Below are positions 3,893 through 64,000 of a stretch of 64,000 nucleotides of DNA, in pieces. Location of the stretch: NCBI GenBank assembly GCA_026770705.1, contig JANJGN010000013.1, positions 38,006,001-38,070,000 on the forward strand, read 5' to 3'. The notes under the pieces were generated by a model. That model had not been told where the DNA came from. It saw only the letters and a list, made by a program, of their open reading frames with translations, and searched no databases. A program made the position numbers and the translations under genes. This DNA comes from Isurus oxyrinchus. Its lineage: Eukaryota. The stretch's first letter is position 1. Each line of letters starts with the position of its first letter.

Positions 3893-6800
3893 TCCCTCTC
3901 CCTTTACTCTGAAATATATTTTACAGTTACGAGTAAAATTTTTCTCAAAATATCAAATTACTTATAGAGTTAAGTAATTTACAAATTCAGTCTTTCTGAG
4001 GGATTCCTTGTGCATATAGAAGATCCCAGGTTTACAGTTTCAGATGCTTTGTCAGGAGCCTCCTTTTCTCAAGTTGCCTGGACTCCAATTTCTTTGGTGG
4101 GTACTTGCAAATCTGTTTCCTCAACTCTTGCAGGTACAGCCAACCCTTCAGGCACATCTGTACTCGGTTGAGTTCTCTCAACAGGTAACATTGACTCAGT
4201 CGTGAACATTGGTTGTATCATTTCTTGGTACTTTGTTCCTCCCCTCCTAACATGATCCACATGTCTCCATAGAACTCAGTCTTCCACTTTCATGTGGTAT
4301 AAAAGTCCAGTCACTGCATTTATTTCACCTGATAACCACTTGGGCCCTTCTCCACAATTTTTCATATATAACGTCTCTGCTACAGTAAAATTTCTGTCAT
4401 GACTGTGCCAGTCACGTCCAGTTTTCTGACTTCCCTGACTCCTTTCCACCTTCCCCCCCACCCCTGCTCCCTCCTCGCTAAATTTGGCATTATTAAGTGC
4501 AATCTCATCCTGAGACGGCGTTTCATCAATAATTCCGCCTGTTGTTGTGGGAGGGGTAGTCCTATAATAGAAAAGAAAACGTGTCAGCGTGGTTGCTATG
4601 GAATCTCCAGTTAATTTCTTCATGCCAGCCTTGAATGTTTGAGCTGCTCTCTTGGCCAGTCCATTTGAGGTAGGGTGGTCCGGTAAAGTTTTTACATGAG
4701 AGATGCCGTTGAGATTCAGCACTCGTCAATGCCATGCCATTATCTGATATGACCACTTCTGACAGTCTATTGATAGCGAAACTTGGACGTAGCTTGTGAA
4801 TTGTAGCAGAAGATGTTGATGACTTCACCTCATATATGTCCATCCATTTTGAGTGTGCGTCAACAATAAGCAAAAACATTGTTCCTACAAAAGGTCCCAA
4901 ATAGTCAATGTGTAATTGCACCCGCGGCCTTCCTGGCCACTCCCAAGGGTGTAACGGAGCTGTTGGAGATAACCTTTGCACTTGCTGACACTGCATACAA
5001 ATCTTCACTAAGCTCTCTATTTCTCCATCCATTCCAGGCCACCATAGACAGCTGTGTGCTTTAGTCTTCATTCGGGAAATTCTTGGATGTGCACTGTGTA
5101 GTTCAGATAACAATGGCTTTCGTCATTTTAGAGAACAACCACTCATACTCCCCACAATAAGATACCCTCCTGGCTGGTTATTTCATATATTCTGTGAAAG
5201 TACAGTTTCATTTCATCGGATTCCTGCTCTTGTGACCAACAATGAAGAACTTGCTCACGTACTGTGGATAAGACTGTGTCTCGACTTGTCTAATCTCTGA
5301 TCTGTCTAGCACAAAACAGTGTTAAATCTAAGAAGTTCAATAATAAAATGAATTTGTGAAAGGCTGGAACATCCTCATCATTTTCTTGCAAAGACTAAGC
5401 GCATCAGCGTTTGCAATTTGATTTCCAGGTCTATGGATGAAAGTATACTCATACGCTGCCAAGATCAATGCCCATCTTTGTATGCTTGCTGAGGCTGTGG
5501 ATGGTGTAGCCTTGTCCTCACTGAGCAATCTTAGCAATGGCTTGTGGTCTGAAATGATAGTAAAATGGTGGCTGTGTATGTACTGGTGAAATTTCTTGAC
5601 ACTAAAGATGATGGGACAGGCCTCCTTTTTTTAATTGCAAGTATCCCTTTTCCTCTGTGTTGAGCATTCTTGATATATATCCTATAGGCCGTTCTGAACC
5701 ATTCGTCCATTCAATGGGAAAGCATTGCTCCCACTCCATATAGAGATGCATCACATATCAATACCAACTCTTTTCTCTGGTCAAAATGTACCAATAGGGT
5801 AGATGAGTGCAACAATTGTTGCACCTTTGTGAAAGCTTCTTTCTATGGTGTTTGTTGGTTTTCTTGAATAGGTTATACATGGGTGCCAGTTCTGCCCACA
5901 AATGAAGTAAGAAGCACCCATAGTAACTGATCATCCCCAAGACTGATTTGATCTCAGGGCTGTTCTTTGGCATTGGTGCCTCTCTAAATGGCTCTCACTT
6001 TTTCCTCAGCTGGGTGGAGGCCCTGTAAATCTACCCTGTGACCGAATTAGACTACCTCTTTCGCTTGAAATGTGCACTTTTCTTTTTTTTAATGCTCTCC
6101 AACCTGTGAGAAATGTTTTAAAACTTCTTCTGAGTTTGCCAAATGCTCCTTTTCAGTGAGTCCTTTCACTAGAACATCATCTAAATAAACTACAATGTAG
6201 GGCAGTCCCTGCAGTAAACTTTCCATTGTTCTCTGGAATATGGCACAATGAAAGGCAAACGGGTACTGGTACAATTCTTTATGTGTATTAATTGTGACAA
6301 ATTTCTGGGAGGCCTTCTCTAACTCCAATTGTTGATAAACATGATTCATATCAAGCTTCGTGTAGGCGGTTCCATCTGCTAGCTTGGCATACAGGTCTTC
6401 AATTTTTGGTGTAGGGTATCTGTTCAACTTCACCACTTTAATAACTGTCAATTTGTGGTCTCCACAAATTCGAACGCTTTGGTCGGGTTTAAGGATGGGG
6501 ACTATTGGTGCTGTCCGTTTCGAGAACTGCACAGGCTGTATAACGCCCACTTTCTCTAATCTATCCAGTTCAGCGTTGACCTTATCCCGCATTGCGTAAG
6601 GTACCGGTCTCGCTTTCATGAATCGAGGGGTTGCCTCTGGATCCATATGAATTTTTGCTTGCAGCCCCTGGATCTCCCCAAGTTTGTCCTTGAAGACAGG
6701 TGTATTTTTATAGTAGCTCTGGTAGCCCACTGGATCTCAGCTGGAAAATTTCAGCCTATTCCAATTTAATTTCCTTCAGCCAGTTTCATCCAAGGAGGCT

Positions 6801-10790: not shown

Positions 10791-10932
10791 CCTAGTTCTG
10801 TTGAAGAGTCATGCGGACTCGAAACATTAACTGTGTTCCACTCCGCAGATGCTGTCAGACCTGCTGAGTTTTTCCAGGTATTTTTGTTTTTATTTTGGAT
10901 TTCCAGCAACCGCAGTTTTTTGCTTTTATCTT
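10791..10932 (+). mobile_element. Penelope-like element tail-only copy starting at the hammerhead
   Basis: Matches the PLE 3' tail (gatgctg..cagacctgctgagtttttccagg..ggatttccagca). Confidence 0.8.
10794..10832 (+). ncRNA. Minimal type-I hammerhead ribozyme-like motif (core CUGUUGA)
   Basis: AGTT-CTGTTGA-A-GAGTC-atgcg-GACTC-GAAA-CA-TT-AACT. Confidence 0.6.
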
Positions 10933-12529: not shown

Positions 12530-13850
12530 AGTCATTTGATAGCACAGAACTTGAGCATTGCTGAAAAAAAAGACATGTTGAAGCTTTTTGACTTACATTC
12601 ACCAGGACACTTTGCAAGAATACCAATACAAGGGGAAAACAACAATTGATACTGTATTGGTTGGCAAGTGGACTCTGATTGGTAGGAACACTGCCATGGA
12701 GAATGGTCCAGGGATGGTGACTGACAGTTAACTGCCAAGAATTGTTTGAAATTTAGGCAGGCAGCTTGACCTTGATTGGTCAAGGCAGTGTCCTGAGGAA
12801 TGAGTCAGCAAATGGCTGTCACTTATTTTGTTTAGCTGAAACAGGCGCAATGTGTGTACATGTTCTTTCTGTCTGCACAGAACAGGGCTCAGTGTATTAA
12901 CATATGTAGCTTCCAATACATGCAAATCCGCCATACTGCAAGCCTGACTGACAATCTTAAATTGGTTGCCAGCACAATTCTTAGCACACTGAGGATTATT
13001 TAGCAAATGGTGTCCAATCGTGGAATCACATCTAATATTGGACACAGTGTTTTGAACTTTGCAAACACTGGCTGGTTGGGTACAGTCTGAACCTTGTCCA
13101 CTGTGAACAGCATCTGGGACATTACATCTTTGGGACGTAATGCTTACATACCTAACATCACAGTGGCACTGAAATTCATATACCACATTACTCATTTATG
13201 TGATAGGCAGAACGTCTTTTTGGCTTGACGGCAGCATCTTGTTAGGGGTGAACACCTCTTGTGTTGCTACTGCACAGTAGCAGTGTGAAACAGCTAGTCT
13301 CACCTGTTGTTCAAATTTTTGAGATACCTTGGCCTTCCAAGGTAATCTGAGGTAGAATGGGCACTTTTCAGGGCTGAAATTGACAGCCTGAGGCCTGTTC
13401 ATAAATTTGCATGATCTACAGCAAGCAATGATCTGATCAGGGTAGACAATATCCTGCAGGATGCCTTTGATGCGCCCTATTTCAGCATCAAACTTACATG
13501 GTGAACAAATGGCTCGGGCCTTATTTACAAGGTTGCTGATAAGACCAATCTTATAGCGTGTGGAACTGTAAGAATCTCAATGCGTAAATTGACCAGTAGA
13601 CCATGGGAGAAAACCTCCTGGCAGATTTCTCAACTAGTATCTCAAGGAAAGGGAGCTGATTTGACTGCTCCATTTCAAAGGTGAATTTGAGTGCAGCAAG
13701 GAGCTCATTAAGACATGTAAGGAAATTATTACAAGTGGTTGCGGATTTAAATATAGCAAACGTCTCATCCACATATCGGAAATATGCGAGGGGTCAGAGG
13801 TTAGGTGACATCCCATCGAGGATAGGTTTCTCATGGAACCAGCAATGCTG
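12530..13850 (-). mobile_element. Second, older Penelope-like family (Poseidon-like), decayed RT C-terminus + GIY-YIG
   Basis: Fragments YFRYVD.TF, LKFTFEMEQSNQLPFLEILV, LRLPW, NVVYEFQCHCDVRYVSITSQR; no Cys-rich linker before the nuclease. Confidence 0.8.
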
Positions 13851-17094: not shown

Positions 17095-18120
17095 ACGAAC
17101 ATACAAACTAGGAGCAGGAGTAGGCCACTTGGCTGATCTGATTGTAACCTCAACCCCACATTCCTGCCTATACCTGATTACCTTTCACCTCCTTGCTTAT
17201 CAAGAATCTATCTACCTCTGCCTTAAAAAATACTTAGAGACTCTGCTTCCACTGCCTTTTGAGGAAGAGAGTTCCAAAGACTCATGATCCTTAGAGAAAA
17301 AAATTCTCCTCATCACTAACGTAAATGGGTGATCCCTTATTTTTAAACAGTGACTCCTAGTTCTAGATTCCTCCATAAGGGGAAACATCCTTTCCACATT
17401 AACACTGTCAAGACCCCTCAGGATCTTACATGTTTCATTCAAGTCACCTCTTACTCTTCTAAACTCCAGCGGATACAAGCCTAGACTGTCCAACCTTTCC
17501 TCATAAAACAACCCGCCCATTCCAGGTATTAATCTAGTAAACCTTTTCTGAATTGCTTCCAATGCATTTACATCCTTCCTTAAATAAGTAAACCAATACT
17601 GTATGCAGTTCTTCAGGTGTAGTCTCACCAATGTCCTGTATAACTGAAGCATAACCTCTCTACTTTTGTATTCAATTCTCCTCGCAATAAATGATAACAT
17701 TCTATTAACTTTCCTAATTACTTGCTATAAAAACAAAAAAACTGCGGATGCTGGAAATCCAAAACAAAAACAGAAATACCTGGAAAAGCTCAGCAGGTCT
17801 GGCAGCATTGGCGGAGAAGAACAAAATTGACGTTTCAAGTCCTGTTCAAGGGTCATGAGGACTCAAAACGTCAACTTTGTTCTTCTCCGCTGATGCTGCC
17901 AGATCTGCTGAGTTTTGCCAGGTATTTCTAATTATTTGCTATATCTGCATAGTAACCTTTTGTGATTCTTGTACCAGAAGACCCAAATCCCTGTGCAACT
18001 CAGACCCTTGCAATCTCTCACCATTTAGATTTCTTTTCATTTTTCCTGCCAAAATGGACAATTTCACATTTTTCCACATTATACTCCATTTGCCAGATCT
18101 TTGCCCACTCACTTAACCAA
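17095..18120 (-). mobile_element. CR1 LINE 3' portion, interrupted by a fold-back PLE
   Basis: 162-aa [35 protein letters not shown]; 3' tail at 17095. Confidence 0.88.
17730..17927. mobile_element. Fold-back (head-to-head) PLE tail insertion with ~16-bp TSD
   Basis: Inverted arms of the PLE tail; TSD ctaattacttgctata (17714-17729)/ctaattatttgctata (17928-17943). Confidence 0.88.
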
Positions 18121-31225: not shown

Positions 31226-31303
31226 AAAAGCTTCAGTAGTGGAATTCAATAAATGCCTTCTGAAAGTCAAATAATTTAGATAAGCACAACATATGTTTTA
31301 ATA

Positions 31304-34267
31304 CAAAAACAGAATTACCTGGAAAACCTCAGCAGGTCTGGCAGCATCGGCGGAGAATAAAAGAGTTGACGTTTCGAGTCCTCATGACCCTTCGACAGAA
31401 CTTGAGTTCGAGTCCAAGAAAGAGTTGAAATATAAGCTGGTTTAAGGTGTGTGGGGGGGCGGAGAGAGAGAGAGAGGGAGAAGTGGAGGGGGAGGTGGTG
31501 TGGTTGTAGGGACAAACAAGCAGTGATAGAAGCAGATCACCAAAAGATGTCAACAACAATAGAACAAAAGAACACAGAGGTGTTAAAGTTGGTGATATTA
31601 TCTAAACAAATGTGCTAATTAAGAATGGATGGTAAGGCACTCAAGGTATAGCTCTAGTGGGGGTGAGGAGAGCATAAAAGATTTTAAAATATTTAAAAAT
31701 AATGGAAATAGGTGGGAAAAGAAAAATCTATATAATTTATTGGGAAAAAAAGGAAGGGGGAAACAGAAAGGGGGTGGGGATGGGGGAAGGAGCTCAAGAC
31801 CTAAAGTTGTTGAATTCAATATTCAGTCCGGAAGGCTGTAAAGTGCCTAGTCGGAAGATGAGCTGGTGTTCCTCCAATTTGCGTTGGGCTTCACTGGAAC
31901 AATGCAGCAAGCCAAGGACAGACATGTGGGCAAGAGAGCAGGGTGGAGTGTTAAAATGGCAAGCGATAGGGAGGTATGGGTCATTCTTGCGGACAGACCG
32001 CAGGTGTACTGCTAAGCGGTCGCCCAGTTTACGTTTGGTCTCTCCAATGTAGAGGAGACCACATTGGGAGCAACGAATGCAGTAGACTAAGTTGGGGGAA
32101 ATGCAAGTGAAATGCTGCTTCACTTGAAAGGCGTGTTTGGGCCCTTGGACAGTGAGGAGAGAGGAAGTGAAGGGGCAGGTGTTGCATCTTTTGCCTGGGC
32201 ATGGGGTGGTGCCATAGGAGGGGGTTGAGGAATAGGGGGTGATGGAGGAGTGGACCAGGGTGTCCTGGAGGGAGCGATCCCTACGGAATGCCGATAGGGG
32301 GGGGTGAAGGGAAGATGTGTTTGGTGGTGGCATCATGCTGGAGTTGGCGGAAATGGCGGAGGATGATCCTTGAATGCGGAGGCTGGTGGGGTGATAAGTG
32401 AGGACAAGGGGGACCCTATCATGTTTCTGGGAGGGAGGAGAAGGCGTGAGGGTGGATGCGCGGGAGATGAGCTGGACACGGTTGAGGGCCCTGTCAACGA
32501 CCGTGGGTGGAAAACCTCGGTTGAGGAAGAAGGAGGACATGTCAGAGGAATTGTTTTTGAAGGTAGCATCATCGGAACAGATGCGACGGAGGCGAAGGAA
32601 CTGAGAGAATGGGATGGAGTCCTTACAGGAAGTGGGGTGTGAGGAGCTGTAGTCGAGGTAGCTGTGGGAGTCGGTGGTTTTGTAATGAATATTGGTGGAC
32701 AGTCTATCATCAGAGATTGAGACAGAGAGGTCAAGGAAGGGAAGGGAAGTGTCAGAGATGGACCACGTGAAAATGATGGAGGGGTGGAGATTGGAAGCAA
32801 AATTAATACAGTTTTCCAAGTCCCGACGAGAGCATGAAGCGGCACCGAAGTAATCATCGATGTACCGGAGAAAGAGTTGTGGAAGGGGGCCGGAGTAGGA
32901 CTGGAACAAGGAATGTTCCACATACCCCATAAAGAGACAGGCATAGCTGGGGCCTATGCGGGTACCCATAGCCACACCTTTTATTTGGAGGAAGTGAGAG
33001 GAGTTGAAGGAGAAATTGTTCAGTGTGAGAACAAGTTCAGCCAGACGGAGGAGAGTAGTGGTGGATGGGGATTGTTCGGGCCTCTGTTCGAGGAAGAAGC
33101 TAAGGGCCCTCAGACCATCCTGGTGGGGGATGGAGGTGTAGAGGGATTGGACGTCCATGGTGAAGAGGAAGCGGTTGGGGGCCGGGAACTGGAAATTGTA
33201 GATGTGACGTAAGGTGTCAGAGGAATCATGGATGTAGATGGGAAGGGACTGGACAAGGGGAGAGAGAAGGGAGTCAAGATAACGAGAAATGAGTTCTGTG
33301 GGGCAGGAGCAAGCTGAGACGATCGGTCTACCGGGGCAGTTCTGTTTGTGGATTTTGGGTAGGAGATAGAAGCGGGCCGTCCGAGGTTGGGCGACTATCA
33401 GGTTGGAAGCTGTGGGAGGAATATCCCCAGAGGAGATGAGGTCAGTGACAGTCCTGGAAACAATGGCTTGATGTTCAGTGGTGGGGTCATGGTCCAGGGA
33501 GAAGTAGGAGGAAGTGTCTGCAAGTTGACGCTCAGCCTCCGCGAGGTCAGTGCGCCAGACAACAACAGCACCACCCTTGTCAGCGGGTTTGATGACAATG
33601 TCAGGGTTGGACCTGAGAGAATGGAGTCCAGTAAGTTCAGAGAGAGACAGGTTAGAACGGGTGAGAGGAGCAGAGAAATTGAGATGACTAATGTCGCGCC
33701 CACAGTTCTCAATGAAAAGATCAAGAGAAGGTAAGAATCCAGAGGGAGGGATCCAGGTGGAGGGAGAATATTGGAGATAGATAAAAGGATCCGTTGAATG
33801 GGGAGAGGACTCCTGCCCAAAGAAGTGAGCCCGGAGACGAAGACGCCGGAAGAAGAGTTCAACATCATGCCGAGCCCGAAATTCATTGAGTTGAGGGCGT
33901 AAGGGTATGAAACTAAGTCCTTTGCTGAGCACTGAACGTTCAGCATCAGAGAGGGGAAGGTCAAGGGGTACAGTGAATACACGGCTGGGGTTGGGATTGG
34001 AAGATGGGGCGGGGACGGAGGGACGGGAAGGGGTGGAGGGTCCTAGATGGGTGTTGGTGTTGATGAGTTGTTGGAGCTTGCGTTCCTTAGCATGTGAGAG
34101 AAAGAGAAAAAGTTTCTTGTTGAGGCGTCGGATGAGCCAAAGAATAAAATGAAACTGGGGGCACGCGCAGCTTTGAAAAAGGGTACGGCGGTGCTGCTGG
34201 AGGGTGAGGTCGAGTGTGTTCATATGGCGGCGCATGGCACTGAGTGTGGATTTCAGAATGTGACGGG
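31304..34267 (-). mobile_element. Neptune-type Penelope-like element, 5'-truncated, young
   Basis: TSD tatgttttaata (31292-31303)/tatattttaata (34268-34279); RT + GIY-YIG ORF; 3' tail with hammerhead motif. Confidence 0.95.
31364..31402 (-). ncRNA. Minimal type-I hammerhead ribozyme-like motif (core CUGUCGA, GUC site)
   Basis: AGTT-CTGTCGA-A-GGGTC-atgag-GACTC-GAAA-CG-TC-AACT: stem I AGTT/AACT, stem II, palindromic ACGT stem III. Confidence 0.7.
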
Positions 34268-36137: not shown

Positions 36138-36294
36138 GGAACATAGGAACAGGAGTAGGCCATTCAGCCCATCAAGCCTACTCCACCATTCAATTAGATC
36201 ATCGCTGATCATCTACCGCAATGCCACTTTCCTGACTATCGCCATATCCCTTGATGTCATTAGTTTCCAGAAATCAAAAGATTTCTGTCTTGAA
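36138..36294 (-). mobile_element. CR1 3' end fragment
   Basis: gaacataggaacaggagtaggccattcagccc tail. Confidence 0.75.
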
Positions 36295-36810
36295 CGCAAA
36301 CTGAAGGGACAGCGCCTCATCTTCCGACTAGGCACTTTACAGCCTTCCAGACTGAATATGGAGTTCAAAAGTTTAGATCATGAACTCTCTCCTCCAACCC
36401 CACCCCCTTAATGATCCCCCTTTTTTTCCAATAATTTATATAGAGTTTTCTTTTCCCACCTATTTGCATTATTTTTAAATGTATTTCCACTGATTTGTTT
36501 TATCTCTACCTTTTAGCCTATTTCGATCCCTTCCCTTCACCCCACCCCACTCCCACTAGGGCTATCTGTACCTTGCTTGTCCTGCTTTCTACCCTTAATT
36601 AGTACATTCCTTTGATAATATCACCACCTTCAACACCTCTTTGTCCTTTTGTCTATGACATCTTTTGGCTATCTCCACCTATCACTGGCCCTCTATCCAG
36701 CTCTACTTGTCCCACCCCCACCCCCACCCCACCTTAAAACAGCTTATATTTCACCTCTTTTCAATTTTACTTAGTTCTGTTGAAGAGTCATATGGACTCG
36801 AAATGTTAAC
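36295..36810 (+). mobile_element. PLE 3' fragment (sister subfamily) ending at the hammerhead
   Basis: aacgcaaactg..ctcatcttccgactaggcactttacagcc (LIFRLGTLQP), 3' UTR, then agttctgttgaagagtcatatggactcgaaatgttaac (36773-36810). Confidence 0.85.
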
Positions 36811-37065
36811 AAAGATCCTATGTTACTCTTTAGAAAAAGAGCAGGGGAATCGACCTGGTGTTCTGGCCAATATCTATCTCTCAACCTATCAGTAAAACAG
36901 GTGATCTGGTCATAACCACAATGTTGTTTTGGGGACCTTTCTATGTACATACTGGCTGCCACATTCCTTACATTACAAAGTGACTGCACTTCAAAGGTAC
37001 TTCATTGGCTGTAAATTGTTTTGGGATTTCCAGAGATCATGCAAGGTGCTATACAAACACAGTCT
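36811..37065 (+). mobile_element. Deu-domain SINE fragment
   Basis: agagcagggga..cctggtgttctggccaata..gcacttcaaaggtacttcattggctgtaaa. Confidence 0.65.
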
Positions 37066-39326
37066 ATCTTTTTCTCTATTTTTATGGCCTTTTATGGCCT
37101 CAGCCAACCTTACTTCTGCAATCTCATCCAGCCTAACATGTTAGCAATTGCTCTTAGTTTTCTGACTCCAGCCTCCGGCACAGCCCCCTTACCCTTGGAT
37201 ATATCCTCGATGGCAGAGCCTTCATATACATGGAACGCCCCTTCAACTTTGCTTCTTTACTCCAAGTCTTAAAAAAACTTCCTCGAAACCTATTTTGTTA
37301 ATCATGCTTTGGGTCAAACTCCTATACTATTGCTTGGCTTTGGTTCTCCTTTGTGCACACTTTGATACATTTTCTACATGCATCAAGGTTGCGACATAAA
37401 TGCAAATTGCTATTGGTTGCATTTCCTTATGAAAAGATTACACTTGTATTATACTAACAATAGATTGATACCAGTATTGGTTTTATGTGACATTTACCAC
37501 AATCAATCCACATGATCCTTCAAGTAACAGATGAGTATCCAGACAAATATACACCAGTTATAACCTCATCTTAACTATTTCTTTTAAGAATCACTTATTT
37601 GAGGAACAGAGAAGAAGAAAAAATGTTAACAAAGATTTAATCCAATTTTTTTATTAGAACCAGTGGCATTCAACAGAGTTATAAATTCTGATGGAACAGA
37701 TTAATGTGCAAGCAGAACCCACATGTATGACTGGTTGTGAAAATTAAGTCTTGCTCCATGATTAGTGAGGTGTGTATCTTTTAAAATATTAGCTGTCTGA
37801 TGTTTACTTGAACTCTGAATGGGCTTTCTACAAATGTATTTGTTCAAATTCATTAATCATGTAGAAAACAGTATGTTAATTCAAGTAACTGTTACCTCGG
37901 TATTATTAGCTAGTTTTAGAAAGCTACATTGTCGAGGCAGTCCACTGTGTAATGACTTCCATTTATTCCAACTCAGATTGAAAGTGACCTTGTTAGAATT
38001 ATTCTTGCATCAAGATCATGCAAGCAAGAGATTTCAATAAAGAATCAATGTACTGTACTACGGAAACAGAGACCAAGATTAGATTCAATTATAGTAGCAA
38101 AAAAATATCCTAAATAACAGTTGCCTTTCACTGAAACAAATGTTCCAAGACGCCTTCTGTATGTAGATTTTTCAGTTAGGTTTGTAACCTTGTAACTTTT
38201 TGAATAGATTGCAGAGAAGAATGCAAAAACTGCTACTGCAGAGAATCACTTCCAGCTCCTCTGGAGACTGCCTCTCTTTCCCAAAGAATGTTCGTTTCCA
38301 TTTTAAAAAATGTAACATTCAAATTGCCGTAATTTTTATGGCATCTCTCTGATTTTCTTTTAAATCAGTGCTGTCAGCTAGTAGAGAACGCAATCTCGCG
38401 CCAAGGGAAGATGCTCTGATGTTTCTCCACTTTACACTAATAGTTTTACTGATTGAAAATTCATTCTAAGCCTAACCAGAAAGAGAATTGGGAGTCCCTC
38501 AGATACTATTGCATTAGAATAATTTATGATATGAAGTCTAGCAAAGCACAAAGCCATTTAAGGTTGTGTAAATCAGGAGAAATTGTTGTTCTGAATGTGT
38601 AGTTTTCACCAATGTAAACCCATTCTCTGTGGATATCAAGGGTTACAATTATTTTCACTGCGCTTGTTCTCATATGATAGTAAAATGGCCTTTCCAGAAT
38701 TTCAAGTATGCTATTTTCCTTGAGTCACAGTGAATGCCAGTATACTTGGTATGCTGCTACATTCGCAGGTCTGTTATTCTTACCATAAGAGACTGTTTAT
38801 TTGTGATAACTATTTCCTAAACCTATTGGCTTTGAAAGTGTAAAAGATAAGCATTATTGAATGGAATTGAATTGTCACACTGTTCTGATGCTGAGAGTAG
38901 TTCACAATAGAATAACAATCAAGCGGTGTGCAGGGCTTTGGAGTTCTGGTTGCTGTGATGAGAGCAATATGAAACAGATATTTGAACACCATATTTTTTG
39001 TTAAAATATCACTCCGCCAGTCTGTCTTCTTACCTTTATGCACAGAACATACATAATAATGGGCTGGATTTTAAGTTCACTGGCAGAAAGGGGTTTGGTA
39101 GCATGTGGAAACCCAGAGGGAAAGTTAGCAAATCTGTCAGTGGCTTTTGAACTCAGTCACTGCATTACCATATTACTCCGGGCTCCCTGACCAATTAGCG
39201 CGCATGGACAACGTTGACCTGCGTGAGTTGATTTCAACTCCAGTATTTAAAGGGATATCGCAAACATGAGAATTGATGGGTTCTGCAAGTGGGAATGGAA
39301 GACAGTGAAATGATGCCTGTCTCTTT

Positions 39327-40460
39327 ATGGGGTATGTGGAACATTCCTTGTTCCAGTCCTACTCCGGCCCCCTTCCACAACTCTTTCTCCAGTACATCGA
39401 TGATTACTTTGGTGCTGCTTCATGCTCTCGGCGGGACTTGGAAATATTTATTAATTTTGCTTCCAATCTCCACCCCTCCATCATTTTCACGTGGTCCATC
39501 TCTGACACTTCCCTTCCCTTCCTTGACCTCTCTGTCTCAATCTCTGATGATAGACTGTCCACCAATACCCATTACAAACCCACCAACTCCCACAGCTACC
39601 TCGACTACAGCTCCTCACACCTCGCCTCCTGTAAGGACTCCATCCCATTCTCACAGTTCCTTCGCCTCCGTCGCATCTGTTCCGATGATGCCACCTTCAA
39701 AAACAGTTCCTCTGACATGTCCTCCTTCTTCCTTAACCGAGGTTTTCCACCCACGGTTGTTGACAGGGCCCTCAACCGTGTCCTGCCCATCTCCCGTGCA
39801 TCCGCCCTCGCACCTTCTCCTCCCTCCCAGAAACATGATAGGGTCCCCCTTGTCCTCACTTATCACCCCACCAGCCTCCGTATTCAAAGGATCATCCTTC
39901 GCCATTTCCGCCAACTCCAGCATGATGCCACCACCAAACACATCTTCCCTTCACCCCCCCTATCGGCATTCCGTAGGGATCGCTCCCTCCGGGACACCCT
40001 GGTCCACTCCTCCATCACCCCCTACTCCTCAGCCCCCTCCTATGGCACCACCCCATGCCCAGGCAAAAGATGCAACACCTGCCCCTTCACTTCCTCTCTC
40101 CTCACTGTCCAAGGGCCCAAACACTCCTTTCAAGTGAAGCAGCATTTCACTTGCATCTCCAACTTAGTCTACTGCATTCGTTGCTCCCAATGTGGTCTCC
40201 TCTACATTGGAGAGACCAAACGTAAACTGGGCGACCACTTTGCAGAACACCTGCGGTCTGTCCACAAGAATGACCCAAACCTCCCTGTCGCTTGCCATTT
40301 TAACACTCCACCCTGCTCTCTTGCCCACATGTCTGTCCTTGGCTTGCTGCATTGTTCCAGTGAAGCCCAACGCAAACTGGAGGAACAACACCTCATCTTC
40401 CGACTAGGCACTTTACAGCCTTCTGGACTGAATATTGAATTCAACAACTTTAGGTCTTGA
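39327..40460 (+). pseudogene. Truncated PLE RT C-terminus + GIY-YIG ORF (377 aa)
   Basis: QYIDD, PFLDL, CPGKRCNTC, LVYCIRCSQCGLLYIGET; N-terminal RT motifs missing. Confidence 0.85.
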
Positions 40461-40859
40461 GCTCCCTCCTCCATCCCCACCCCCTCTCTGTTTCCCCCTT
40501 CCTTTTGTTTTTTTCCAATAAATAGATTTTTCTTTTCCCACCTATTTCCATTATTTTTAAATATTTTAAAATCTTTTATGCTCCCCCCACCCCCACTAGA
40601 GCTGTATCTTGAGTGCCCTACCATCCATTCTTAATTAGCACATTCGTTTAGATAATATCACCAACTTTAACACCTATGTGTTCTTTTGTCCTGTTGTTTA
40701 TGACATCTTTTGATGATCTGCTTCTATCACTGCTTTTGCCTAAAACCACACCAACCCCGTCCACTTCTCTCTATCTCTCTCTCTCTCTCTCCGCACCCCC
40801 CCCACCTCCCAACACCTTAAACCAGCTTATATTTCAACTCTTTCTTGGATTCGAACTCA

Positions 40860-40897
40860 AGTTCTGTCGAAGGGTCATGAGGACTCGAAACATCACT
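40860..40897 (+). ncRNA. Hammerhead-like motif, decayed stem III/I
   Basis: agttctgtcgaagggtcatgaggactcgaaacatcact. Confidence 0.55.
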
Positions 40898-40992
40898 CTT
40901 TTCTTCTCCGCCAATGCTACCAGACCTGCTGAGTTTTCCAGGTAATTCTGTTTTTGTAGTGAATTGACAGAATTGAGTGCACACATTCGAAG

Positions 40993-41999: not shown

Positions 42000-42480
42000 G
42001 ACCCACACACCGCCTCGTGTCCTGCTGGCTGTGTCTATCCCTGTATACATGTAGGTGGAACAGCCTTTAACAAAGCAATCTCATCTTTCCAATAAGCACT
42101 TTACTGTCTTCCAGTCTCAACTGTGAGTTCAACAATTTCAGAACGTAACACCTGCCCCCACTGGTTTTGGTCAGGAGCTATTGGTAATGATTCTCCTATT
42201 CCGAGAAATACCTCCTCTAGATCCATCTTTTGTCTCCTTACTGGGCGATTTCCCATCTCATTTTGTCTCCCTTTCGTCATTTATTTTCTTCTGTCTTCCA
42301 ACCCAACAGAAACCTTCCTTTTTCTTCTTTCCTCCTCTCCTCTTTCCCTGGACTTGCTTACATCGCCAAACATTTCCAGTTCTAAAGAAAGGTCATTGGC
42401 CTAAAATGTTAACTTTGTTACTCTCTCCACTGATGCTGCCTGAGCTGCTGAGAGTTCCCAGTGTTTTCTGCTTTTATTGT
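42000..42480 (+). mobile_element. Old PLE 3' fragment with decayed hammerhead (42378-42415)
   Basis: ttccagtctcaactgtgagttcaacaatttcaga (GLNIEFNNFR-like); cagttctaaagaaaggtcattggcctaaaatgttaact; gatgctgcctgagctgctgag. Confidence 0.6.
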
Positions 42481-47395: not shown

Positions 47396-49039
47396 CTACA
47401 ATCTTTTAATTTTTAACAGCAAGTGTCAAAGATAACAGATGTAGCACTATGTTAAGTAATATATCAGTACGTAATTTATGAAGAAGAATGAAAGGTCCAT
47501 ATGAAATGAATGACTTTCATTCTCCAGATTTGTGAATTGCTTTCTGGCATTTTTCTTTAGTGATGACGATTGCAGTCAAGGTCTATGAGAACAGTTTTAC
47601 GGTTCATTTGCACTCATGCTTTCAAGCCATTCTTTTTATTCCCAACATTGTTAATTTCAGAGACCTGTATGTCTCGCACCATGTTTGTAATACCACAAAA
47701 CAGCATACATTTCCCTCTGTCACTGGGAGCAATGATAGATGTACAACGTCCCGAAATGCTTTTAACTATGCATTGCCAAGAATGAGCACTAAGAGATGCT
47801 TTCAATCTGACTTGAATCTAGTATTGGAAATCAATGTACAATGTCTAACATTTATGTATTATTGCTCATCTTTATATCCTCTTTCTGCAACCTTTGGTCT
47901 TTCGGAGCATTTCAGTTTGAAACAATGATCCTTGCAGGAGGGACATGCTCCAGGATTCACGATATGAGTAATGCACTACCATGTTATCATAATACTGCTA
48001 CTTCAATAAATTTACTGTGCAAATAATTATTGCTTGAGCCATTAATCAATATACAATGAAAAGTCCAAGCTTCATTTCTGCTGAAGGCTTCAAGATGTTT
48101 GGAATGAAATTGGTCGATGCCAGTACTGTCAAGTGGGCAGTAGTAAATTGTCAGCCTGTTTTCCAGTGTGCCAATTTTCTTTTTCAACAAAGTCAATGGA
48201 AAATAAAGTCAGGCACCTTTTTAAGACAGGTTGTCAATTTGCTACTGCTCATTTGCTCTACTGTCCAAGAGCAATCCCCTCTCCTTTTTTCGAATTATCC
48301 TTTAAAGTAACTACCTTCTAAGGAATGTATCATGCATGCGTACAGAGCCTCAATCTGTTACACATTTCTTGCCATTAAAAATAACAGTAGGATAAGTGAC
48401 ATTTTGACTGTGCAACCCCTAACTTGACCACCCAGAGGTGATCAGAATCTGAATCTATATATTCGGGACTTAACTGTTATTTTCGCCACCTGATTCTCTT
48501 CCATTGAAATACTATTCGGCGTTATGCTGCCCTCTTGCAGCTAGCTGAGCAAGCAAGTAGATCGCAGACTTTACGGTTTGCAACACAATTTTTTAATCAT
48601 GCCTTAATATTCATCCTTGATATCAAGAATGCAGAATTCTTAACTGCTAGCCTTTGACATAGCCGACAGGAATGATTGGTGAGTTGGATTATTGTCCTTG
48701 AGCACAGTATGAACAATTGTCCTGAACATATTTTAAAACACAATCTGTAACAATATAACCTGGCAATGAAACACTTCCCTTTCATATTCAATCAAGATTC
48801 AGAGTAATTTGAATATTCAGTCAATTGATGAGATATACAGGCACTTACTGTCAGGTTAAATAGACATATTATGTAGTTACTGCTTTAATGAAGATGTGTA
48901 GCAAAATAAAAATATTAGTAAAAGACATGGGAAATTATACATGTAGCAGTCTAATCAATTGATTTATTTCTTTTAAACCTTACATAAAATAAAATTTCTC
49001 TGAGCTGGATAGTTGTGAATTCAGCACCAAGTCTAGTGT

Positions 49040-58327: not shown

Positions 58328-58561
58328 AAAAACAAAAAACTGCGGATGCTGGAAATCCAAAACAAAAACAGAATTACCTGGAAAAACTCCGCAGGTCTGG
58401 CAGCATCGACAGAGAAGAAAAGAGTTGACGTTTCGAGTCCTCATGACCCTTCTACTTAGTTCTGTCGAAGGGTCATGAGGACTCGAAACATCAACTCTTT
58501 TCTTCTCCGCCAATGCTGCCAGACCTGCTGAGTTTTTCCAGGTAATTGTTTTTGTTTTGTG
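58328..58561. mobile_element. Fold-back PLE tail insertion with perfect 14-bp TSD
   Basis: TSD atctataagggaat (58314-58327 and 58562-58575); arms are reverse complements meeting at gacccttc-tactt-agttctgtcgaagggtc. Confidence 0.92.
58458..58496 (+). ncRNA. Hammerhead-like motif (core CUGUCGA)
   Basis: agttctgtcgaagggtcatgaggactcgaaacatcaact. Confidence 0.6.
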
Positions 58562-60735: not shown

Positions 60736-62407
60736 TCACTATCTGGCACCTTCACTAGCATCTTCTGAGAACTTTTCATCTTCATTTACAGACGCTATAT
60801 GAATACAAGGTGGTGCTGTTGTTAAAAGGAAGGGGAGAAGGATTAAAGTTAGGACGTACCGTGATGTCAGACCATTGGTGTCACAGCCAGTTCGGTGAGA
60901 CTGTGACTGAAAAAGTTAAGTCAGGAAGATGCCAAATAACCTTGCCAAGGCAAGTCTTCAGCTCTACCTGCTCCAATGCTAACTGTAGAGTTCCACCCTT
61001 TACATCAATGGCAGGCTCTTACACAAGGGTGAATGTTTGCAGACTGATAGCACATCCTCCTTCCTACTGAATGCAAAATTCTGCTGCAAGAGTAGAAGTG
61101 GATAAATATGTGCCCTGGGCCTGGGCTTTTAACCCTCACCAGGCATTAGCCGGTGCAAAGCAGGCTGTATGATGAAAGAAAGGGGCAGCAAACACGGCTA
61201 AGAAGGAGAAGCAGCTGTGGGGGCAGTAGCAGCTTCTACTACTAGGGTGAGGGAAAGACAGGAAGAGCAGTGAAGTCTTCATCATTGACATGTGAACAGC
61301 CATGGCTGAAGAAAAGTTGAGATAGGCTGTGCAGAGAGAACAAGGGGTATTGAAGAGATCTTACTCTTGAGATGATTCAATTGCTTGCTGCTTTGCAGCC
61401 AATTCCAGGAGAAAATGCCTGTGGGAAGCAAGATTCATGCTGGCAGTTCGCCTGCCACATGGAAATGAAAGATGACCCAAGTTCTGGGACCATATCCTCT
61501 CTGACTCCTTCAGGTCAGTGTTGCTCTCAGCCCATCCATCAGTTTCATTTTGGGAGACCAAATTTCACATAAAACATTGTGGTTTTAAAAGCAGCTTTTT
61601 AATCTTGTGTCATCGATCATAAAAGAGGCTCATTGCTAATACAAATATACAAACTTATACCATTATTCTTATTCAGTAGTTGTCACTATATGAATATAAA
61701 CTCTCAGACCTCTGAGCCGAATGGGGTGGACGTCACAAATGCAATGGTTTCCTCGTTCTTTTCTCTCTCTGTGAAAGATGTGGAATGAATGGTCCCATCG
61801 GCATGAACACCTCTTTATGACCACTACTTCTCAGCATGGTTTCAGGATTTTCATATCAGCAATTTAAATATTTATACAACTTGACAAACATCCACTGGAC
61901 TCTCGATGCTAGACATTAACAAGTGCCCTTTGCAGTCCTGCCAACCCAGTGCCCAAATTAAATTTAAAAACTCCTGTTGATGCAACATCTTTCATGCACC
62001 TTACAGAAGGAACAGTGGACACCATAAAGGAAGTAGAAGTTAGGCCAGAGGATGGGAAATAAGAGAAGGCATGGTTAAAGCGGCAGAGTTTACAGAGCGA
62101 ATGAGAAGGGTAGTATTGCAAAGAAGACTAAGAGGAGAATTCCAGAACGTAGAACATGCAGATGGTGCAGTACTGGAAGGGTACACCACAGGCATTAGTC
62201 AGTAGAGCCACCAGGGTAAGCTAGAACTCAAAGCTGGAGAAGATCACCGAACGGGGTGGAGTAAGGCCATCAAGAGCTTTGAAAATGAACCCTTGAGTCT
62301 TCCATAAAAATAAAAACAAAAAAACTGCGGATGCTGGAAATCCAAAACAAAATCAGAATTACCTGGAAAAACTCAGCAGGTCTGGCAGCATCGGCGGAGA
62401 AGAAAAG

Positions 62408-62446
62408 AGTTGACGTTTCGAGTCCTCATGACCCTTCGACAGAACT
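62408..62446 (-). ncRNA. Minimal hammerhead ribozyme-like motif (core CUGUCGA, GUC site)
   Basis: Identical to the 31364-31402 motif. Confidence 0.7.
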
Positions 62447-62819
62447 TGAGTTCGAGTCCAAGAAAGAGTTGAAATATAAGCTGGTTTAAGGTGTGTGTGT
62501 GGGGGGCGGAGAGTTAGAGAGAGAGAGAGGTGGGGGGTGTGGTTGTAGGGACAAACAAGCAGTGATAGAAGCAGATCATCAAAAGATGTCAACGACAATG
62601 GTACAATAGAACACATAGGTGTTAAAATTAAAGTTGGTGATATTATCTAAACGAATGTGCTAATTAAGAATGGATGGTAGGGCACTCAAGGTAAAGCTCT
62701 AGTGGGGGTGTTTTTTTTATATAATGGAAATAGGTGGGAGAAGGAAAATCTTTATAATTTATTGGAAAGAAAAAAAAGAAAGGGGGAAACAGAAAGGGGG
62801 TGGGGATGGGGGAGGGAGC

Positions 62820-63995
62820 TCACGACCTAAAGTTGTTGAATTCAATATTCAGTCCGGAAGGCTGTAAAGTGCCTAGTCGGAAGATGAGGTGTTGTTCCTC
62901 CAGTTTGCGTTGGGCTTCACTGGAACAATGCAGCAAGCCAAGGACAGATATGTGGGCAAGAGAGCAGGGTGGAGTGTTAAAATGGCAAGCGACAGGGAGG
63001 TTAGGGTCATTCTTGCGGACAGACCGCAGGTGTTCTGCAAAGCGGTCGCCCAGTTTACGTTTGGTCTCTCCAATGTAGAGGAGACCACATTGGGAGCAAC
63101 GAATGCAGTAGACTAAGTTGGGGGAAATGCAAGTGAAATGCTGCTTCATTTGAAAGGAGTGTTTGGGTCCTTGGACGGTGAGGAGAGAGGAAGTGAAGGG
63201 GCAGGTGTTGCATCTTTTGCGTGGGCATGGGGTGGTGCCATAGGAGGGGGTTGAGGAGTAGGGGGTGATGGAGGAGTGGACCAGGGTGTCCCGGAGGGAG
63301 CGATCCCTATGGAATGCCGATAAGGGGGGTGAAGGGAAGATGTGTTTGGTGGTGGCATCATGCTGGAGTTGGCGGAAATGGCGAAGGATGATCCTTTGAA
63401 TGCGGAGGCTGGTGGGGTGATAAGTGAGGACAAGGGGGACCCTATCATGTTTCTGGGAGGGAGGAGAAGGCGTGAGGGCGGATGCGCGGGAGATGGGCCG
63501 GACACGGTTGAGGGCCCTGTCAACGACTGTGGGTGGAAAACCTCGGTTAAGGAAGAAGGAGGACATGTCAGAGGAACTGTTTTTGAAGGTAGCATCATCG
63601 GAACAGATGCGATGGAGGCGAAGGAACTGAGAGAATGGGATGGAGTCCTTACAGGAAGCGGGGTGTGAGGAGCTGTAGTCGAGATAGCTGTGGGAGTCGG
63701 TGGGTTTGTAATGGATATTGGTGGACAGTCTATCACCAGAGATTGAGACAGAGAGGTCAAGGAAGGGAAGGGAAGTGTCAGAGATGGACCACGTGAAAAT
63801 GATGGAGGGGTGGAGATTGGAAGCAAAATTAATACATTTTTCCAAGTCCCGACGAGAGCATGAAGCAGCACCGAAGTAATCATCGATGTACCAGAGAAAG
63901 AGTTGTGGAAGGGGGCCGGAATAGGACTGCAACAAGGAATGTTCCACATACCCCATAAAGAGGGAGGCACAGCTAGGGCCTATGCGGATACCCAT
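62820..63995 (-). CDS. PLE RT C-terminus + GIY-YIG endonuclease (partial, open toward the window edge)
   Basis: WYIDD, PFLDL, CPRKRCNTC, LVYCIRCSQCGLLYIGETKRKLGDRFAEH, RKLEEQHLI. Confidence 0.8.
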   Translation of the reverse strand: MGIRIGPSCASLFMGYVEHSLLQSYSGPLPQLFLWYIDDYFGAASCSRRDLEKCINFASNLHPSIIFTWSISDTSLPFLDLSVSISGDRLSTNIHYKPTDSHSYLDYSSSHPASCKDSIPFSQFLRLHRICSDDATFKNSSSDMSSFFLNRGFPPTVVDRALNRVRPISRASALTPSPPSQKHDRVPLVLTYHPTSLRIQRIILRHFRQLQHDATTKHIFPSPPLSAFHRDRSLRDTLVHSSITPYSSTPSYGTTPCPRKRCNTCPFTSSLLTVQGPKHSFQMKQHFTCISPNLVYCIRCSQCGLLYIGETKRKLGDRFAEHLRSVRKNDPNLPVACHFNTPPCSLAHISVLGLLHCSSEAQRKLEEQHLIFRLGTLQPSGLNIEFNNFRS

Positions 63996-64000
63996 AGCCA

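Follow-up and report, generated by a model that had tools for sequence, protein, structure and literature searches.

A Penelope-like element hammerhead motif with U at core position 6 in Isurus oxyrinchus

The stretch of DNA analysed here, which we refer to as the window, covers 64,000 nt of Isurus oxyrinchus (GCA_026770705.1, contig JANJGN010000013.1, positions 38,006,001–38,070,000, forward strand). On its minus strand lies a hammerhead motif of a Penelope-like element (PLE) in which a core base that is normally nearly invariant, A6, is replaced by U. This base was lost, and about 90,000 exact-match copies were then made with the remaining core unchanged. What, then, does such a motif still do for the element that carries it? 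The role of PLE hammerheads is itself debated, as they are described as weak in vitro, as dispensable for insertion in one reconstituted system, and as missing from some very successful clades (PMC4209133, PMC11167929, PMC8557442). The present genome contains both the ancestral and the derived forms, which amount to ready-made matched constructs. Searches that insist on CUGANGA would miss the form of the motif that is commonest in this genome.

The motif and its host element

An earlier note on this DNA had laid out stem I, the core CUGUCGA with an extra A, stem II, GAAA and a GUC site at 31364–31402, and all of these were read directly on the minus strand (Table 1). Its assignment of the motif to the minimal hammerheads of PLEs is supported by this layout and by the PLE context. 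The identification rests on these two and not on folding energy, since an Rfam scan of the window at E up to 10 matched no hammerhead family, and the folding energy of the 39-mer was the same as that of shuffled sequences (z 0.06). The longer motif occurred nine times in the window against a shuffle mean of 1.7, and none of 100 shuffles reached this count; the bare 8-mer CTGTYGAA, also with nine occurrences, was not clearly enriched in the window, as 6 of 100 shuffles reached nine.

Table 1. Features of the PLE and of further motif copies in the window.
Feature	Position	Strand	Basis or remark
5′-truncated PLE, whole	31303–34267	−	motif closes its 3′ pseudo-LTR
5′-truncated RT + GIY-YIG ORF	31794–34267	−	94.6% identity to the intact tandem unit in L001
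3′ UTR / pseudo-LTR upstream of motif	31403–31793	−	
Tail past predicted cut	31303–31363	−	3′ end of element; ATT in flank; putative region where reverse transcription begins
Minimal type-I hammerhead motif with U6	31364–31402	−	layout, pairing, alignment
Stem I (AGUU/AACU)	31399–31402 with 31364–31367	−	
Core CUGUCGA	31392–31398	−	
Core position 6, U replacing consensus A	31395	−	sequence and genome counts
Extra A	31391	−	
Stem II GGGUC/GACUC around loop AUGAG	31376–31390	−	
GAAA	31372–31375	−	
ACGU palindrome	31369–31372	−	
C17	31368	−	predicted cut between 31368 and 31367
Upstream GGACTCGAACTC block	31404–31415	−	its GAAC predicted to pair with GUUC in this copy
Solo copy, older U6U7/GAGUC stage	10794–10832	+	starts at motif 5′ edge; homology to 10919
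Decayed U6 copy (CUGUUCA)	17838–17876	+	head-to-head with inverted partner 17730–17843
U6U7/GAGUC copy ending 3′ fragment 36293–36810	36773–36811	+	without tail
U6C7 copy, 3′ end of truncated element 39313–40957	40860–40898	+	
Decayed copy of older PLE family, A at position 6	42378–42414	+	stem II AGGUC/GGCCU
U6C7 copy	58458–58496	+	head-to-head with inverted partner 58329–58455, partner without core start
Intact U6C7 copy	62408–62446	−	3′ end of element reaching window edge (62313–64000)

Of the core positions C3-U4-G5-A6-N7-G8-A9, only position 6 departs from the consensus, and the other six fit. GAAA and GUC, which supply G12-A13-A14-A15.1, U16.1 and H17, are present in the 31364 copy and are fixed in the subfamily stages described below apart from CpG decay. 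Helix II has G10.1-C11.1 and an unpaired base after A9. The motif follows the ORF and the 3′ UTR and precedes the tail, which is the pseudo-LTR placement of minimal PLE hammerheads. Stem II was said to stay paired in the earlier note, and this held for each of the 12 distinct rows in an alignment selected by hand, in which 100% of the cells were paired and two pairs had double-sided changes, both coming from two older-family rows. The arms of helix I are complementary; 82.6% of its cells were paired, and double-sided changes were absent from the alignment.

Minimal hammerheads of metazoan PLEs have been reported to cut weakly and as dimers (PMC4209133; review PMC6765202). The shark motif resembles those described by Cervera and De la Pena 2014 (PMC4209133) in its pseudo-LTR position, its short stem I, the extra base between A9 and G10.1, the G10.1-C11.1 pair, the loopless palindromic 15.2–16.2 stem, the NUH site and the many solo and opposite-strand copies. 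It differs from them at position 6, which is U here, or C in one phase. Figure S3 of the same paper gives A6 in 56 of 56 representative motifs, obtained with a search descriptor that required canonical boxes, and the core variant given there is U3-A8 (PMC4209133). A natural A6C hammerhead exists in bacteriophage Bcep176, with low but detectable activity in Mg2+ and rescue by Mn2+ (PMC3088659, PMC7151607); its rate is about 3.6e-6 per min at 0.3 mM Mg2+ in a full-size hammerhead (PMC7151607). Both systems have a natural pyrimidine at position 6, and the shark lineage also has a C6 phase. However, Bcep176 A6C is one sequence from a phage, whose activity was measured and is low, with Mn2+ preferred, whereas the shark motif is mainly U6, minimal and dimer-type, and is fixed in about 90,000 exact-match copies. 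When another hammerhead was scanned by mutation, low activity was found for single and double mutants in the CUGA turn, the C3-G8 swap excepted (PMC9901934). PLE hammerheads and a natural position-6 pyrimidine (A6C) are thus already known. A natural A6U hammerhead or a shark PLE variant was not found in the accessible parts of the literature searched, outside which lies the work of Lunse et al. 2017 on PLE hammerhead variants; the accessible part of a 2026 retrozyme preprint includes one chondrichthyan and has no passage on the 'catalytic core'.

The host element was characterized through its intact relatives in a tandem array, L001:1–9490, which comprises one partial and two full units with a period of 3.3 kb and three U6 motifs. 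The two full units differ at one of 3,339 aligned bases, and one of them has an open ORF of 918 aa; therefore the U6 elements moved very recently. The array is compatible with either a circular or a read-through template. The intact ORF contains the DKG, YIDD and YIGET motifs. RVT_1 was matched above its cut-off and GIY-YIG at E 0.0009, which is below the curated cut-off. These domains, the pseudo-LTR, the tail and the tandem and inverted truncated insertions are those of an EN+ PLE. A CX2-5CxxC linker lies between RT and EN (CPRKRCNTC at residue 783 of the intact ORF). The linker is a Neptune-type feature and makes the element a candidate member of Neptune; a linker motif is found in Nematis as well. 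The best-matching named homolog was a Chiloscyllium protein (69%).

A single ORF with RT and C-terminal GIY-YIG, DKG, the CX2-5CxxC linker and tandem or inverted insertions are also reported for Neptune-clade EN+ PLEs (PMC8557442). Like PAc, the Poseidon PLE of Anolis (Frangieh et al. 2024, PMC11167929), the element is of the EN+ type, carries a hammerhead that probably lies close to the 5′ end of its RNA, and has a tail and, at the junction, an ATT target. PAc, however, belongs to the Poseidon clade and its ORF begins within the motif, whereas the shark ORF has a CxxxxCxxC linker and an AUG beyond the motif, the first in-frame AUG lying 170 nt after C3. In the Anolis PLE, reverse transcription is initiated internally with a preference for ATT, and the hammerhead cuts only with protein (PMC11167929). 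Two short upstream ORFs of 18 and 10 codons, the first beginning in loop II, precede the main AUG in young shark elements (L001:6060–6280).

Origin and fixation of U6

To reconstruct the subfamily history, the window was combined with 1.22 Mb of fetched DNA; together they gave 401 tail matches at E 0.01, 308 of them with a recognisable core. The fetched DNA was aimed at pattern matches, and subfamily proportions in this sample are not those of the genome. A tree was made from the ORF end and the 3′ UTR with the motif excluded. It kept 75 of 103 rows; the other 28 were left out because their ORF part was truncated or divergent. The root was placed on the longest A6A7 tip and not on an outgroup.

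The tree was a single ladder running from A6A7 through A6U7, U6U7 (with GAGUC in stem II) and a mixed C6U7/U6U7 stage (GGGUC) to U6C7, and the median tip lengths along it were 0.110, 0.067, 0.062, 0.033, 0.019 and 0.005. Support for the step from A6 to U6 was low (0.29–0.85); the order agrees with the tip lengths and with stepwise haplotypes. Since ladder, tip lengths and haplotypes agree, U6 is, judging from these sequences, derived; it arose once and later passed through a mixed C6/U6 phase. Position 6 later alternated between U and C, and no A6 subfamily re-emerged. Loss of an upstream AUG, which CUGAUGA holds, was also considered as the cause of A6U. It is weakly supported, a new AUG having appeared later in loop II.

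The genome-wide count of U6 against A6 that the earlier note had proposed was carried out, and U6 proved dominant in the youngest lineage. Exact genome-wide matches in the shared stem-II context numbered 89,875 for U6, 6,081 for A6 and 2,804 for C6/G6; in the youngest sequence context there were 59,315 with U6 vs 323 with another base. An A6 family consensus, which the note had named as what would speak against its reading, was found in the older ancestral subfamilies alone. The recently mobile lineage has U6 as its consensus, which is no peculiarity of the copies in the window. Among the A6 matches listed, nearly all had a different loop II, and most of the C6/G6 matches listed were CUGCUGA, which is a real subfamily. 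A count by eye of the first 100 non-U youngest-context copies listed gave 24 with A, 17 with G and 59 with C, so A6 revertants have not multiplied beyond what point mutation gives. Exact-match counts favour young copies and the higher U6 counts are confounded by age; they are therefore no proof of faster copying caused by U6. The family also occurs in contigs of a second species, compared over L001:6010–6260, with no alternative letter reaching at least 5% at position 6, and U6 appears to be common to that species from this contig-level evidence at 80% likeness.

How the motif changed after A6 was lost bears on whether it stayed under constraint. Stage-majority changes fell on N7, on H17 (U to C, both of which are allowed in hammerheads), on two letters of loop II and on pair 10.2 (A-U to G-U). 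None of the ten further invariant letters of the core changed across the U6 stages, and neither did G10.1-C11.1, the palindrome or stem I. Four of eight free positions had changed vs none of the 14 positions of core and helix III (Fisher p 0.0096), a within-motif contrast that is based on five changes. The probability that a 14-position core would stay unchanged is 0.02 at the rate of the UTR (78/318 columns changed), 0.19 at that of the tail (9/80) and 0.30 at that of the ORF (27/327). The sequence flanking the motif on both sides changed along the same branches. Constraint on the core after the loss of A6 is, on these comparisons, suggestive and not decisive.

Insertion junctions, predicted folds and possible roles

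Junctions were scored in 100 young copies picked by the tail alone (C1 up to 3.9 Mb and 12.7 Mb), 62 of which had a 5′ junction within 100 nt. Of these 62 junctions, 36 lay at −12 to +3 of C3, six inside the motif and 18 further upstream; none of the 62 from these tail-selected copies fell at the predicted cut, and two lay after it. When events were counted, the motif edge held 13 of 28 non-inverted junctions and 17 of 24 inversions. The non-inverted junctions were most frequent at the first A of stem I, which accounted for 4 of the 13 at the edge in young copies and for 4 of the 14 in old ones. In 58 older copies, mostly A6, 17 of 35 junctions were at the 5′ edge and two near the cut, and about a third of the copies start within −12 to +3 of C3 in both the U6 and the older A6 stages. 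Junctions scored at −96 to −80 probably reflect alignments that stop in a C/CT repeat. Genome-wide, 378 copies keep the post-cut bases but are without GAAA, vs 93,881 tail matches; the negated pattern behind the 378 captures just part of such junctions.

No cleavage footprint was found in the U6 insertion junctions, either in the sampled copies or by the genome-wide pattern. Because junctions are absent from the cut and pile up at the 5′ edge of the motif, the integrated templates were uncut or re-ligated in both stages. As the older, mostly A6 copies have the same pattern, the junctions reveal no change in cutting. The pile-up suggests that the element RNA starts at the motif. A type-III-like cut upstream of stem I was rejected as the cause of the 5′-edge junctions, inspection finding no NUH site in register. 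The corresponding A6-type footprint count (324) was uninterpretable, as most of it comes from a recurrent flank with GCCC at its end, ahead of RTTAAC. This GCCC-ending flank, seen just before RTTAAC in old copies, is probably another repeat inserted at that palindrome.

Predicted folding, in contrast to the pattern of changes, points away from constraint. The predicted probability of stem II was about 0.99 in the A6U7 and U6U7 stages vs 0.46 in the youngest stages, where it was 0.05–0.11 when upstream sequence was included. The hammerhead dimer was predicted at −10.1 kcal/mol vs a cofold minimum of −18.2; the ACGU palindrome is present, and the dimer is not the predicted minimum. The earlier note had also suggested that GAAC in the upstream block could pair with GUUC and compete with stem I. 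Such a hairpin is predicted in the 31364 copy and its stage, but the youngest subfamily reads GAAAUC and has lost it. The hairpin, predicted in the older U6C7 stage, was therefore rejected as a maintained switch. In the older stages, a pyrimidine tract runs up to an AG where stem I starts and resembles a splice acceptor (31399–31425, minus strand); the youngest stages have AAG and an altered tract there. A donor-like CAG/GTA appears in the tail (31312–31322, minus strand) at about the A6U stage.

We give about even chances to a weakened ribozyme, in which A6 changed to U once, the rest of the core stayed fixed, and cutting would be slow, probably dimer-only and protein-assisted. The transcript would start at about the first A of stem I, and reverse transcription would begin past the cut site, in the tail, and would have to run through a motif that is either uncut or has been re-ligated. 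Since copying would need such a motif and fast cutting would lose templates, a slower core would be tolerated or even favoured, and residual selection on hammerhead geometry would keep the other core letters. Jumping probably does not depend on fast cutting. As the minimal motif is weak to begin with, U6 may leave it practically inactive. The stronger claim, that the lineage turned down its own hammerhead by changing A6 to a pyrimidine, as RT copies the uncut motif, and that it retained slow cutting gated by protein or metal and came to copy itself better, we consider doubtful. If this attenuation did occur, the dated natural series A6A7, A6U7, U6U7, C6U7, U6C7 would directly test what PLE hammerheads are for.

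A motif that no longer cuts usefully and is kept as a non-catalytic 5′-end element, for example as a binding or folding site for the PLE protein, is possible though rather unlikely. It would agree with the use of uncut templates at the junctions, with the weaker predicted stem II of the youngest stages and with the poor cutting reported for position-6 mutants (PMC7151607, PMC9901934). Hammerhead mutants of the Anolis PLE still insert in vitro, with no effect reported (PMC11167929), and Naiad PLEs reach very high copy numbers without canonical hammerheads (PMC8557442). Against it stands that the changes that followed the loss of A6 hit sites that catalysis tolerates (N7, H17, loop II, a wobble pair), including single letters within otherwise fixed blocks. 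At the other extreme, U6 might be fully active here, for example by removing a mispairing of UGAC or UGAU with GUCA at the cut site; in silico, putting A6 into the young context strengthens the pairing of the core outside the hammerhead fold (−11.3 vs −7.9 kcal/mol, with C7). Full activity is nevertheless highly improbable, as U6 arose earlier, in a different context with a mispairing of its own, and published changes at position 6 reduce activity (PMC7151607, PMC9901934, PMC3088659).

The remaining explanations take the ribozyme to be a passenger or a relic. Constraint could act on DNA or on transcript processing if the motif overlaps an internal promoter or start site, or if the AG of stem I serves as a splice acceptor. 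Such constraint would fit the peak of the non-inverted junctions at the opening A of stem I and the AG that ends the pyrimidine tract of the older stages. Penelope of D. virilis is reported to have a promoter inside the element and an intron whose end lies at helix I (PMC2377424, PMC4209133). We hold constraint of this kind improbable, because it leaves the pairing of stem II, the double-sided changes and the tolerated-site pattern unexplained, and the upstream tract is heavily changed in the young stages. It is a little less probable still that A6U killed the ribozyme and that the changes in the relic are too few to reveal decay. An unchanged core is no surprise at the tail rate (0.19) and predicted folding weakens over time, but the UTR rate (0.02), the within-motif contrast (p about 0.01) and the changes in both flanks over the same branches argue against a relic.

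Further copies and repeats in the window

U6 was found in all six copies named in the earlier note, as CUGUCGA at 31364, 40860, 58458 and 62408 and as CUGUUGA at 10794 and 36773, and a seventh copy with U6 lies at 17838 (CUGUUCA). The ACGU palindrome and GUC are intact in just two of the six (31364 and 62408). The other named copies have CpG-type changes; in addition, the tail is lost at 36773 and an arm of stem I is broken at 40860. Other fragments of the window (4562–6736, 2147–2698, 17212–17724 and 12728–13195) look like pieces of mobile elements, and we take them to resemble integrase and RT parts of an LTR retroelement, fragments of LINE RTs and another GIY-YIG-like piece. The inverted repeat at 48129–48256, which is long and imperfect, gave matches below the cut-off to miRNA models and is probably a small inverted-repeat element.
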